A stretch of 64,000 bases of DNA from Octopus vulgaris (Eukaryota): NCBI GenBank assembly GCA_951406725.2, contig OX597828.1:37200001-37264000 (forward strand). Reading direction: 5' to 3'. Numbering within the stretch: position 1 is the stretch's first letter; the number at the start of each line of letters is the position of its first letter. The position numbers were made by a program, and so were the translations under genes. Of the stretch, positions 7,810-17,256 are shown piece after piece. The notes beneath the pieces were generated by a model, which was not told the DNA's origin, ran no database searches, and saw only the letters and a list, made by a program, of their open reading frames with translations.

Positions 7810-9052
7810 TACACGAAGAAAAGTCTGTCATCATCCAGGAAAGTGCTGAAGGCACCTCTCTTCATGTTATGCATAGTAGTTAGGTCGTCATTTGGACATG
7901 GTTAGACGATATCTGAAAGAAACGATTCGATTGTGGGACCTCCAAACTGTGACAGCTAGGGATTTCAGGAATATTGGCTGCAGGCTACGTGGGAAATCTG
8001 GACAACCAAGCAAAGCCATTATCATCGCTTCTGGACTTCCTCATGTACCGAAAGCGACCAGACATCGCATCCTCAGGACCATGGCTTCCGCGCAAGAACC
8101 CCTGAAAATGCCTTCTTTAACACAGGAGTTTGAGACTTCAATGGGTCCAAAAGTACATGGCGTTAGACATGAGTTGTTTTCTGTTCACTGACGAAACCAG
8201 GGCGACTCTTCACAGACCTGACGGTTGGGCAAATGGTTGGGCCTATTTTGAAGATACGCGTCAATAATGTTTACGACGTCAACAACAGGGTGGAGGTGCC
8301 ATGTTGTAGGCTGGTATCATTGGGGACAGACTTGATGGCCCAGTCAGGATGTCTAAAGGTGTTAAAGTGACCGCGGTGGCCTACTGTAATCTCCTGAAGG
8401 AGGTCTTGGATCCCTGGCCAGATGACATACCGCTGTCACCTCTAAGGAATCTCGTATTCATGCATGAGAGCACTCCCTTCCCATTCTGCTAGGACCACCC
8501 AAACATTACAAGGGTCTTACGGCATACAAGGCGAAAGGTTGGCGGTGTGGCCACCAGCATCTCCGGATCTCAACCCAATCGAAAATCTTTGGTCCATCAT
8601 TAAACAAGATGTTTATGCCGATGGACGCCAGTTTACCTCGAAAGATGTCTCATGGGTTATCATGAAAGCTGCAGCAGAGGCAGTCTAACCTGCTACTATT
8701 AAGATATTCACAGATTCCATGACTAATTGGGTTTTTTGAAGTTAACCGTTAAAATGGCGCTCATGTGGTTAAATAATTATTTATGTCAATAAATGTTATA
8801 TTATTATGCTTTTCTGTTAAATATATACTCAACGTATGCTTTATATGTATCACTACACTTCACTTTCTGAAAAAAATGTGTACCTGGGCTATTTTCATTC
8901 AAAAGTCATTACCGTGGTACACCCCAAAACTGAAGATAACAATGGTGTTGCCATATTGTGCAAACCAGCTGGGAAAAGTTTTATCAAAATCGATTCACAG
9001 AAAAGCGACAAGTCCTAAATTTCACTCCTAAGCTATTAGCATAGTTCTGGGT
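7810..9052 (+). mobile_element. Decayed Tc1/mariner transposon, DD37E (TRT-like) transposase pseudogene
   Basis: LFTDETRATL..PDGW (about 8180-8230), FMH(D>E) (about 8460) and WPPASPDLNPIENLWSIIK (about 8548-8605). 37 residues lie between the second and third acidic positions after correcting one frameshift; multiple stops. Right boundary approximate. Confidence 0.85.
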
Positions 9053-9059
9053 GTATATA

Positions 9060-9277
9060 TATTCTTTGATTCTTTTATTAATTTTAGTCATTTTGACTGT
9101 GGCCATGCTGGAGCACCGCCATTTAGTCGAAGAAATTGCCCCCCTGGTCTTATTCTTTGTAAGCCTGGTACTTATTCTGTCGGTCACTTTTGCCGAACTG
9201 TTACGTTACGGGGGCGTAAACATCGTTTGTTAAGTGATGGTGGGGGGACGAACACATGCACAAACATACAAATAAAC

Positions 9278-9314
<37 letters not shown>

Positions 9315-9498
9315 TACACACACACACATACACACACATATATATATACAATGGGTTTCTTTCAGTTTCCGTCTACCAAATCCATTCACAAGGCTTTGGT
9401 TGGCCTGAGGCTACAGTACTAGACATTTGCCCAAGGTGCCACGCAGTTGAACTGTGGTCGGGAAGCAAGCTTCTTACCACGCAGCCACGACTGTGCCT
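9060..9498 (-). mobile_element. SINE family B, near full length
   Basis: Reverse complement of the family B head, CORE-like block and GGCGGTGCTCCAGCATGGCC tail. Confidence 0.85.
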
Positions 9499-9516
9499 AT
9501 ATATATATATACATAC

Positions 9517-9584
<68 letters not shown>

Positions 9585-9853
9585 TTAATAAGGGTGAGAG
9601 AATTAGATACTAATTTAATAGTATATTTATTCAACACCAAGTGGCCTAGTGCTCCGAGAAACCTGGATTATTATAATATTTTATAACATATTATAATATT
9701 TTTACAAAATAAATATAAGAGAGTGGTCACTATATTGCTCACTCTAGCACCAGTTAATCCAAAAGGTTTCAACCACGAAAATACATGTTTCCCATGAAAG
9801 TCAGTACGATTGTTAGCTCACACGGACAGGGCAAATAAAAAATAACAAAAATA

Positions 9854-9950
9854 CAGATTATTTTGGGACAATTGTTTCGCTATTAATGAATTAAATGTAA
9901 TTTTACTTACAAAAAAAATCCATTTGTAGCTCGTCAGCCAAAACTATCTG
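9854..9950 (-). ncRNA. Type I hammerhead ribozyme, 536-bp unit (also 10390-10486 and 10926-11022)
   Basis: Reverse complement of the motif at 11430-11526. The third copy has C>G at 11002, which breaks the G10.1-C11.1 pair. Confidence 0.85.
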
Positions 9951-11429
9951 GATGAAATCCACTCAATCACACGCCAGATTTTACCATAACGATAAATACG
10001 CGTGTGGTTCAATTGATTACATCCGACGTTATAATTCAAATGCCCCAACCAACAGCGCGCCAAACTTTCACGGAAAACAAATACAGCATTTAGAAATAAA
10101 TGCAGCATAATTATAATTAATTAATAAGGGTGAGAGAATTAGATACTAATTTAATAGTATATTTATTCAACACCAAGTGGCCTAGTGCTCCGAGAAACCT
10201 GGATTATTATAATATTTTATAACATATTATAATATTTTTACAAAATAAATATAAGAGAGTGGTCACTATATTGCTCACTCTAGCACCAGTTAATCCAAAA
10301 GGTTTCAACCACGAAAATACATGTTTCCCATGAAAGTCAGTACGATTGTTAGCTCACACGGACAGGGCAAATAAAAAATAACAAAAATACAGATTATTTT
10401 GGGACAATTGTTTCGCTATTAATGAATTAAATGTAATTTTACTTACAAAAAAAATCCATTTGTAGCTCGTCAGCCAAAACTATCTGGATGAAATCCACTC
10501 AATCACACGCCAGATTTTACCATAACGATAAATACGCGTGTGGTTCAATTGATTACATCCGACGTTATAATTCAAATGCCCCAACCAACAGCGCGCCAAA
10601 CTTTCACGGAAAACAAATACAGCATTTAGAAATAAATGCAGCATAATTATAATTAATTAATAAGGGTGAGAGAATTAGATACTAATTTAATAGTATATTT
10701 ATTCAACACCAAGTGGCCTAGTGCTCCGAGAAACCTGGATTATTATAATATTTTATAACATATTATAATATTTTTACAAAATAAATATAAGAGAGTGGTC
10801 ACTATATTGCTCACTCTAGCACCAGTTAATCCAAAAGGTTTCAACCACGAAAATACATGTTTCCCATGAAAGTCAGTACGATTGTTAGCTCACACGGACA
10901 GGGCAAATAAAAAATAACAAAAATACAGATTATTTTGGGACAATTGTTTCGCTATTAATGAATTAAATGTAATTTTACTTACAAAAAAAATCCATTTGTA
11001 GGTCGTCAGCCAAAACTATCTGGATGAAATCCACTCAATCACACGCCAGATTTTACCATAACGATTCGTGGTTGAAACCTTTTGGATTAACTGGTGCTAG
11101 AGTGAGCAATATAGTGACCACTCTCTTATATTTATTTTGTAAAAATATTATAATATGTTATAAAATATTATAATAATCCAGGTTTCTCGGAGCACTAGGC
11201 CACTTGGTGTTGAATAAATATACTATTAAATTAGTATCTAATTCTCTCACCCTTATTAATTAATTATAATTATGCTGCATTTATTTCTAAATGCTGTATT
11301 TGTTTTCCGTGAAAGTTTGGCGCGCTGTTGGTTGGGGCATTTGAATTATAACGTCGGATGTAATCAATTGAACCACACGCGTATTTATCGTTATGGTAAA
11401 ATCTGGCGTGTGATTGAGTGGATTTCATC

Positions 11430-11526
11430 CAGATAGTTTTGGCTGACGAGCTACAAATGGATTTTTTTTGTAAGTAAAATTACATTTAATTCATTAATAG
11501 CGAAACAATTGTCCCAAAATAATCTG
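11430..11526 (+). ncRNA. Type I hammerhead ribozyme, 536-bp unit (also 11966-12061, 12482-12578 and 13018-13114)
   Basis: CAGAUAGUUUUGG-CUGACGA-GCUA...UAGC-GAAA-CAAUUG-UC^-CCAAAAUAAUCUG: full canonical core, helix I UUUUGG/CCAAAA extended by CAGAU/AUCUG, palindromic helix III. Predicted cleavage after C11513. Confidence 0.88.
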
Positions 11527-13254
11527 TATTTTTGTTATTTTTTATTTGCCCTGTCCGTGTGAGCTAACAATCGTACTGACTTTCATGGGAAACATGTATT
11601 TTCGTGGTTGAAACCTTTTGGATTAACTGGTGCTAGAGTGAGCAATATAGTGACCACTCTCTTATATTTATTTTGTAAAAATATTATAATATGTTATAAA
11701 ATATTATAATAATCCAGGTTTCTCGGAGCACTAGGCCACTTGGTGTTGAATAAATATACTATTAAATTAGTATCTAATTCTCTCACCCTTATTAATTAAT
11801 TATAATTATGCTGCATTTATTTCTAAATGCTGTATTTGTTTTCCGTGAAAGTTTGGCGCGCTGTTGGTTGGGGCATTTGAATTATAACGTCGGATGTAAT
11901 CAATTGAACCACACGCGTATTTATCGTTATGGTAAAATCTGGCGTGTGATTGAGTGGATTTCATCCAGATAGTTTTGGCTGACGAGCTACAAATGGATTT
12001 TTTTGTAAGTAAAATTACATTTAATTCATTAATAGCGAAACAATTGTCCCAAAATAATCTGTATTTTTGTTATTTTTTATTTGCCCTGTCCGTGTGAGCT
12101 AACAATCGTACTGACTTTCATGGGAAACACCTTTTGGATTAACTGGTGCTAGAGTGAGCAATATAGTGACCACTCTCTTATATTTATTTTGTAAAAATAT
12201 TATAATATGTTATAAAATATTATAATAATCCAGGTTTCTCGGAGCACTAGGCCACTTGGTGTTGAATAAATATACTATTAAATTAGTATCTAATTCTCTC
12301 ACCCTTATTAATTAATTATAATTATGCTGCATTTATTTCTAAATGCTGTATTTGTTTTCCGTGAAAGTTTGGCGCGCTGCTGGTTGGGGCATTTGAATTA
12401 TAACGTCGGATGTAATCAATTGAACCACACGCGTATTTATCGTTATGGTAAAATCTGGCGTGTGATTGAGTGGATTTCATCCAGATAGTTTTGGCTGACG
12501 AGCTACAAATGGATTTTTTTTGTAAGTAAAATTACATTTAATTCATTAATAGCGAAACAATTGTCCCAAAATAATCTGTATTTTTGTTATTTTTTATTTG
12601 CCCTGTCCGTGTGAGCTAACAATCGTACTGACTTTCATGGGAAACATGTATTTTCGTGGTTGAAACCTTTTGGATTAACTGGTGCTAGAGTGAGCAATAT
12701 AGTGACCACTCTCTTATATTTATTTTGTAAAAATATTATAATATGTTATAAAATATTATAATAATCCAGGTTTCTCGGAGCACTAGGCCACTTGGTGTTA
12801 AATAAATATACTATTAAATTAGTATCTAATTCTCTCACCCTTATTAATTAATTATAATTATGCTGCATTTATTTCTAAATGCTGTATTTGTTTTCCGTGA
12901 AAGTTTGGCGCGCTGTTGGTTGGGGCATTTGAATTATAACGTCGGATGTAATCAATTGAACCACACGCGTATTTATCGTTATGGTAAAATCTGGCGTGTG
13001 ATTGAGTGGATTTCATCCAGATAGTTTTGGCTGACGAGCTACAAATGGATTTTTTTTGTAAGTAAAATTACATTTAATTCATTAATAGCGAAACAATTGT
13101 CCCAAAATAATCTGTATTTTTGTTATTTTTTATTTGCCCTGTCCGTGTGAGCTAACAATCGTACTGACTTTCATGGGAAACATGTATTTTCGTGGTTGAA
13201 ACCTTTTGGATTAACTGGTGCTAGAGTGAGCCATATAGTGACCACTCTATTATA

Positions 13255-13327
<73 letters not shown>

Positions 13328-16529: not shown

Positions 16530-17256
16530 TATCACCTCCGCCTTAGCGAAGGCAAAGGTATTGTTTTCAGTCGTGTTTGTTTGTCCGTGGACAAGATATC
16601 TCAAGAACCGCTGGAAGGATTCAGATGAAACTTTCAGGGATGTTTGGCCTCGGGACTGGCACAAACTGATTAGAATTTAGGATCGATCCGGTACCGGACA
16701 AAGATTCTGGATTATTTTCCCGTCTTTTTTAACTTAATTTTTGAGAGCGGTTGGGTTCATTCTTAGTATTCTCGTTTTTGAGAGCAGTCAAGTTTATTTC
16801 AGATATTCTCATTTTAAAAATCATCACTGGTTCATCGTAGAGAGGACGTTGGTGTTGCCTTGGTGGAGGTTTGCGCTCTCTGAATGCTCTTGTTATCTTC
16901 GTCTTCGCTAAGACGGAGGTATTGTTTTCAGTCGTGTTTGTTTGTCTCTGGACAAGATATCTCAAGAACCACTGGATAGATTCGGATGAAACTTTCAGGG
17001 ATGTTTGGCCTCGGAACTGGTACGAACTAATTAGATTTTGGGATCGCTCCTGTACCGGACAAGGATTCCGGATTATTTTTCCATTTTTTTAAAACTTGAT
17101 TTTTGAGAGAGGCCGCGTTCATTTGAAGTATTCTGGTTTGTGAGAGCAGTCTAGTTTATTTCAGGTATATTCATTTTAAAAATCATCTCCGGCTAATACT
17201 TTAGAGGACGTTGGTGTTGCCTTGGTGGAGCTTTGCGCTCTCTGAATGCGCTTGTT
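16530..17256 (+). mobile_element. Two head-to-tail copies (about 361 bp) of a Helentron-associated (HINE/DINE-like) non-autonomous element
   Basis: 5' ACCTCCGCC..GG(C/A)RRAGGTATTGTTTTC hairpin, GTTTGTTTGTC tract, and 3' CTTGGTGGAGGTTTGCGCTCTCTGAATGCTCTTGTT subterminal IR plus hairpin; period 361. Confidence 0.75.

Follow-up and report, generated by a model that had tools for sequence, protein, structure and literature searches.

How does a non-coding repeat that carries a hammerhead ribozyme motif come to lie in a genome as two tandem arms pointing in opposite directions? The question is raised by a foldback array in a 64,000-nucleotide stretch of Octopus vulgaris DNA, hereafter the window. 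The array lies between two (TA)n target tracts, which have no strand of their own and occupy positions 9498-9579 and 13251-13327, and it consists of 536-bp units that are 99.8-100% identical to one another, except for one copy with deletions. Unit positions are numbered from a reference copy on the plus strand (11269-11804), such that unit position 1 is window position 11269 and the predicted cut falls after unit position 245. The left arm (9576-11065, minus strand) contains 2.78 units and has its RNA-sense 3' end at a fixed position, site A, corresponding to unit positions 532-536 at about 9576-9580 of the window. The right arm (11065-13261, plus strand) contains about 4.1 units and has its RNA-sense 3' end at a second fixed position, site B, at about unit position 403, with one substitution just upstream at unit position 392. 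In the reference unit, on the plus strand, site B lies at 11671-11674 (unit 403-406, about 160 nt past the cut site) and site A at 11796-11804 (unit 528-536, about 290 nt past it); these are presumably the proximal and distal start positions for the RT. The arms meet head to head at 11065, where unit position 119 meets unit position 333 with a 1-nt overlap, which is not a mirror point. One plus-strand copy has a 19-nt deletion of unit positions 326-344, located at 12129-12130.

The array has a GC content of 31-33% and holds no reading frame as long as 100 aa, in agreement with the preliminary description, which had recorded a foldback of near-identical non-coding units between (TA)n tracts. 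It also lacks the RT and GIY-YIG ORF of an autonomous Penelope-like element (PLE), and no PLE frame (RT, GIY-YIG) was detected in the 64-kb window. The left flank (9050-9497) is made of very common interspersed repeats that are SINE-like in appearance, with 173 matches among the fetched loci and very high depth. Elsewhere in the window, at 16556-17256, a 361-bp near-tandem repeat (1.9 copies, 86%) is without the hammerhead pattern and has no match among the fetched loci.

Foldbacks are a known artefact of long reads, and no public contig crosses the window junction at 11065. An origin in misassembly or chimeric reads, which the preliminary description had raised as a concern, is nevertheless extremely improbable. 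The arms are unequal in length and in end site, the ends are fixed, the flanks are unrelated, and the junction differs at each locus that we mapped. Short-read contigs of run X15, which may be the source sample, also show minus-to-plus joints, at other unit positions, with a depth of 48-92 compared with 34 in the unique flank.

Hammerhead motifs and their predicted fold

CUGACGA cores are found on the minus strand at 9937, 10473 and 11009 and on the plus strand at 11443, 11979, 12495 and 13031, which confirms the three minus and four plus cores, and the strand switch at 11065, noted previously. The accompanying claim that every unit holds a complete hammerhead stands for six of the seven copies, in which the core is intact (C3-U4-G5-A6-N7-G8-A9, G12-A13-A14, A15.1-U16.1, an NUH triplet and G10.1-C11.1). 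These six type I motifs lie at 9861-9943 and 10397-10479 on the minus strand (predicted cuts after 9867 and 10403) and at 11437-11519, 11973-12054, 12489-12571 and 13025-13107 on the plus strand. In the first of the plus-strand motifs C3 is 11443, G12 is 11502 and C17 is 11513, so that the cleavage position predicted earlier, C11513, coincides with the modelled one; the other three have predicted cuts after 12048, 12565 and 13101. The seventh type I motif (10933-11015, minus strand, core at 11009) carries C in place of G10.1 at 11002 (unit 182C) and on this basis is likely impaired.

The motif at 11437-11519 has a helix I of 12 pairs that extends over 11430-11526, a long helix II that encloses 52 nt, and a 2-bp helix III with a palindromic loop. 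A constrained fold of this motif gives helices I and II and the 2-bp helix III, with helix I open. Judged from its sequence, this is a canonical hammerhead with a long helix II, and the label "minimal" applied to it earlier is not appropriate: minimal PLE hammerhead motifs, as presented in parts of PMC4209133, are without helix III and have a short helix I, whereas the octopus motif keeps helix III and has its 12-pair helix I. An Rfam check had also been proposed, and its outcome was divided. Hammerhead_1 (RF00163) matched 11437-11519 in a 161-nt query with 30.1 bits (E 5.5e-6) and a 40-nt insertion in loop 2; this score is below the gathering score of 34, and a 7-kb scan, unlike the 161-nt scan, listed no hammerhead. 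The hammerhead fold has a z-score of -4.07, and none of 200 shuffled sequences was equally stable.

Folded as a circle, the 536-nt unit has a predicted energy of -150.8 kcal/mol (z -7.7 relative to 40 shuffled sequences). Pairing between the hammerhead core and the cleavage strand is predicted (P 0.98), and the active monomer fold is calculated to lie 5.6 kcal/mol above the minimum. A duplex of the helix III palindromes of two copies is predicted at -6.4 kcal/mol. Sites A and B fall in mostly unpaired U/A stretches of the predicted fold.

A young, dispersed repeat family

A pattern spanning the hammerhead has 1,032 matches in the genome assembly, and the reversed control has none. A search with the unit DNA, in which 40 of 1,067 candidates were scored, gave 233 matches, of which the best 150 lie on many contigs and are mostly 98-100% identical. 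These searches, which the preliminary description had recommended, support its reading of the 536-bp repeat as a young, dispersed, non-coding hammerhead family of retrozyme type.

We mapped 65 loci: 39 from the unit DNA search, 25 from further searches, and the window. They are a part of the family biased to young, complete copies, and two items were removed before counting: a stray 72-bp match in L038, and from L056 a small additional insertion. Array size has a median of 3.2 units and a maximum of 18.2, and single-copy substitutions number 88 in 130,400 bases, or 6.7e-4 per base. Satellite-like local amplification of a single unit by unequal crossing-over, which part of bioRxiv 10.64898/2026.07.22.740005 suggests for retrozyme arrays, is very improbable here. 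Partly shared variants and changes in homopolymer length could reflect later exchange, but the low rate of single-copy substitution leaves little time for amplification, many dispersed loci have more than one unit in each arm, and no old-to-young gradient runs along the arrays at the 16 loci examined copy by copy.

Target-site duplications are masked by the TA tracts, and the 65 loci include one clear case, a one-way insertion (L133:4650-5466) whose duplicated stretch of about 30 bp extends beyond TA repeats into other sequence. In a decayed family copy (L121 / L134) helix II is shorter and several stretches are deleted. PLE frames that flank some of the family loci are separate insertions. 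Contigs of two runs that we took to be RNA by guess cover parts of the unit; in one of these, X1, all of the depth at 9633 comes from an allele seldom present in run X15, which is a hint of transcription and should be read as a hint only.

No LTR structure is apparent in the repeat. Sections of PMC7229834 and bioRxiv 10.64898/2026.07.22.740005 describe metazoan non-LTR retrozymes as non-coding tandem units with one canonical type I hammerhead each, a short palindromic helix III and low GC (<50%), dispersed as dimers to multimers, with a predicted self-paired circle and with PLEs in the same genome, and the octopus repeat is alike in all of these respects. We place it among them because their testable features, as given in parts of PMC7229834, are present, and by its sequence it forms a family of non-LTR retrozymes that is new. 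No paper describing the 536-bp family, or a rule of one arm per site in retrozymes, was found in the literature outside subscription journals, Repbase and some supplements. The unit is larger than the retrozymes of coral, mussel and axolotl (170-400 nt) and had been thought unusually long, yet 536 nt lies within the range of 51-972 bp given in a section of bioRxiv 10.64898/2026.07.22.740005. Further differences from the metazoan non-LTR retrozymes, so far as those sources depict them in part, are the long helix II and the predicted blocking of the core by self-pairing, which is not usual in animal retrozyme circles according to a portion of PMC7229834. Foldback arms and fixed ends are also absent from the descriptions in the same portions of PMC7229834 and bioRxiv 10.64898/2026.07.22.740005. 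No pLTR homologue was found among the PLE families examined. In Xenopus, 24/57 retrozyme families have homology to PLE pseudo-LTRs, and a PLE origin and mobilisation of retrozymes has been proposed with the mechanism left open (bioRxiv 10.64898/2026.07.22.740005, in part). A circular RNA is the intermediate that has been put forward for such mobilisation.

Most foldbacks use each of two fixed end sites once

The 65 mapped loci comprise 42 foldback and 23 one-way arrays, and their RNA-sense 3' ends adjoin (TA)n. We classed these ends as site B when they fell at unit positions 400-409 and as site A when they fell at 528-536; the two sites are 130 nt apart. By script, 35 of the 42 foldbacks have one arm ending at each site, none has both arms at A or both at B, and seven have one end unclassed. 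Were the site chosen freely, 35 mixed pairs out of 35 would have a probability of 3e-11. Inspection of the flanks raises the count to 40 of 42, since five of the seven (the window, L066, L067, L134 and L140) are A+B pairs with a nearby change; the other two (L049 and L127) have a truncated arm that is not at TA. Among the one-way arrays the 3' end is at site A in 14 and at site B in nine. TA-rich DNA adjoins 94 of 107 3' ends, compared with 11 of 23 outer 5' ends.

The other breakpoints follow no such rule. The inner and 5' breakpoints, 114 in number, are spread evenly along the unit (KS p 0.23), and no junction is repeated among the 42 foldbacks, which argues that the arrays were neither copied from one another nor stitched from cut linear monomers. 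The junctions have an overlap of 1-4 nt in 19 cases, are blunt in seven and contain unmatched bases in 16. Two further relationships were considered and rejected: 5' ends do not favour the ribozyme cut site (3/114 near it, 2.8 expected by chance), and arm length does not depend on the site (Wilcoxon p 0.85, n 35).

The preliminary description had explained the inversion by a template switch within a rolling-circle cDNA. A single cDNA that folded back or switched template would account for the one haplotype found in both arms, and a few loci (L031, L067, L136 and L143) do contain extra internal switches. Such an event predicts a random far end, however, whereas the far end was found by script at the other fixed site in 35/42 foldbacks, and the junctions are not mirror points. 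The end rule contradicts a template switch unless synthesis of the second arm stopped exactly at the other site, and we consider this explanation very improbable. The start of the two arms at different fixed sites fits two separate priming events. Taken with the scattered 5' ends, the variants shared between arms and the occurrence of the same rule in PLEs, the end rule leads us to read the foldback as the product of two-site PLE priming.

The same footprint in coding Penelope-like elements

A GIY-YIG search in which 150 of 6,136 candidates were scored led to the first PLE family. It is very young and has an intact 781-aa RT-endonuclease frame, overlapped by an upstream 479-aa frame; from its linker motif we take it to be a Neptune-type family (family 1). 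It has two end sites 35 nt apart before (TA)n, and each is used once in three of five foldbacks, the other two having a truncated arm. Copies of this family (L101-L117, e.g. L109:1618-6310) have a 4,713-bp period and a degenerate hammerhead-like motif near the 3' end. A second Neptune-type family (family 2) is also young, with ends about 47 nt apart and each site used once in all five foldbacks read; in the mapping of its ends, four of eight loci were without a match to the anchor. The third family has a canonical hammerhead with a long helix II and is abundant, forming the main part of the 3,825 pattern matches listed. Its ends lie about 50 and 210 nt past the cut site, leaving a tail of about 160 nt, and each site is used once in six of eight foldbacks, with two unclear. 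This family (L217-L246, L197 and L199) is older, with a median identity of 96.5% among 30 copies, and was classed as Hydra-type by its endonuclease motif, following part of PMC8557442. All three coding families also end at (TA)n.

The rule extends to a 353-bp hammerhead repeat unrelated to the 536-bp unit, which accounts for most of the listed rows of 611 pattern matches. Its ends fall at positions 204-207 and 249-254, about 45 nt apart, and each site is used once in eight of ten foldbacks, two of these being the same junction at two places. The repeat (L147-L176, e.g. L169:1148-1500) is very young and has older relatives. A second young Hydra-type PLE (L247-L266, L067:1480-3000) has a microsatellite-like 3' region that is conserved between copies, with no hammerhead in the 700 nt after the stop.

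These observations support the earlier suggestion that the arrays formed at insertion and are linked to PLEs. The 536-bp repeat has the insertion footprint of a PLE, with a 130-nt tail instead of 30-40 nt. As with Neptune and Hydra PLEs in the relevant passages of PMC8557442, there are partial tandems and an inverted 5'-truncated arm, the target is (TA)n, the tail is often present at just one end, and a hammerhead lies upstream of the 3' end; unlike them, the octopus repeat is without an ORF, its tail is 130 nt and up to 18 identical units are arrayed. With Poseidon PAc of Anolis, as reported in sections of PMC11167929, it shares two fixed internal ends downstream of the hammerhead, an AT-rich target and the use of both strands, a dimer being predicted for PAc. 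The PAc sites are 30-40 nt apart and not strand-specific in vitro, whereas octopus insertions use each site once and their RNA is a non-coding passenger. Non-autonomous Chlamys elements such as MRC1 are likewise ORF-less, with multicopy head-to-tail insertions, but such derivatives share 3' sequence with an autonomous family and most Chlamys are without a canonical hammerhead, and the octopus repeat differs in both respects (portions of PMC8557442).

No coding PLE clearly homologous to the 536-bp unit was found among the families examined, which gave weak local matches only. Neptune-type family 1 has no similarity to the unit, and the second young Hydra-type family is also unlike it. In 12 comparisons with PLE ends, site A was most like the distal one of the Hydra-type family (p 0.015) and one further PLE end (p 0.024), neither being significant after correction, and the Hydra-type family gave no alignment to the whole post-cut region of the unit (p 0.90). 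Neptune-type family 2 gave an AT-rich match of 57 nt that scored above 100 shuffles, but a low-complexity match to another family did so too. At L131:4747-5560, the long arm of a foldback of Neptune-type family 2 runs into unit positions 18-406, joined at an AT-rich look-alike stretch. Of 1,676 candidates 40 were scored, and this chimera was a single case among them. Its PLE part differs by 9% from young family 2 copies, which makes a template jump and an insertion into an old copy equally likely.

What the octopus repeat adds to the known retrozymes is the end rule. A non-coding ribozyme repeat and the coding PLEs of one genome leave a strict, countable footprint, in which two RNA start sites are used once each. 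The footprint extends the two-site result obtained in vitro to a pairing rule in vivo, and it argues that arrays are born at insertion.

Proposed mechanism of insertion

We propose that the array is one insertion, in which a borrowed PLE RT-endonuclease used the two nicked strands as primers on a single RNA, probably a monomer circle, and we estimate the probability of this reading at roughly three in four. A tandem locus would be transcribed, paired hammerheads would cut the transcript to 536-nt monomers, and a host ligase would close the monomers into circles, in which pairing with the cleavage strand would keep the catalytic core locked. A PLE protein, likely a dimer, would nick both strands of a TA tract, with cDNA synthesis beginning at site A from one nicked 3' end and at site B from the other. 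The number of laps would vary from one cDNA to the next, and the two cDNA ends would be joined head to head to form the foldback; if one arm were lost or very short, a one-way array would result. The anatomy, the copy family, the end rule, the haplotype common to both arms and the occurrence of the rule in coding PLEs are observed; the cleavage, the circle, the enzyme and the order of events are what we infer.

Several steps have precedents. According to parts of PMC11167929, both strands of AT-rich DNA are nicked and extended by a PLE in vitro, with two internal RNA start sites, and the PLE is predicted to be a dimer. Other findings count against the proposal. The 130-nt spacing of sites A and B far exceeds the PLE tail of 30-40 nt (passages of PMC8557442 and PMC11167929), although in the Hydra-type family here the tail is about 160 nt. 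The start site in vitro is the same for both strands and hammerhead cleavage is dispensable, as stated in a section of PMC11167929, and of the Xenopus retrozyme dimers in part of bioRxiv 10.64898/2026.07.22.740005 only 1/9 cleaved in vitro. For a direct reconstitution, the RNA and its two start positions are now named, along with the target and candidate enzymes that are intact.

Variants within arrays and the nature of the template

Variants called relative to the window unit bear on whether the template was a circle or a multimer. In all, 128 variants, a set that includes subfamily markers, are fixed throughout their array, and both arms cover 66 of them. The two arms share a common haplotype: private variants occur in both arms at L136 (8/8 and 9/9), L142 (5/5) and L145 (3/3), and incompletely at L051 (5/6) and L048 (4/5). 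This distribution fits the feeding of both arms by one RNA molecule. A further 19 variants are shared by only part of the copies in their array, where independent mutation would give 0.058, and nine multi-copy variants are confined to one arm. The partly shared variants are not strictly periodic, though some are equally spaced (L053, copies 1+13 and 3+15), and homopolymer length varies along the arrays. It is chiefly these partial variants that count against a clean monomer circle. A pure single-monomer template fails to explain partial and one-arm variants unless a damaged base was misread lap by lap, while a multimeric template or later conversion would explain them.

Alternatively, two-site PLE priming could have used a linear multimer that was left uncut after transcription of a long source array, no circle being involved. 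The 19 partly shared variants, with some at equal spacing, speak for such a template, as do the use of uncut RNA as the main substrate in vitro (part of PMC11167929) and the predicted blocking of the hammerhead core together with the cost of its active monomer fold. On the other hand, an inversion junction is never inherited between loci, private variants fixed over 7-9 copies and both arms demand a homogeneous source every time, arrays reach 18 copies, and the partial variants lack strict periodicity. We regard the linear multimer as a serious but unlikely alternative to priming on a circle.

For the circle, a more specific arrangement can be put forward tentatively, at somewhat less than even odds. 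A PLE dimer would clamp one 536-nt circle at two sites 130 nt apart, one for each nicked strand of a TA tract, and both its subunits would run for up to 18 laps; the core lock, opening only in multimers, would let the circle survive. If this is true, the genome preserves PLE rolling-circle reverse transcription in hundreds of records, each made by one molecule, with lap-by-lap misreading among what they show.

RNA editing was considered as a source of the private variants and rejected. A>G accounts for 5 of 29 private multi-copy variants and T>C for four, and the 536-bp family shows no enrichment of A-to-I scars. At L064:2743-8219, a ten-copy arm is a mosaic of partly shared variants, and two hammerhead core positions are altered together in 5 of the 12 copies at this locus.
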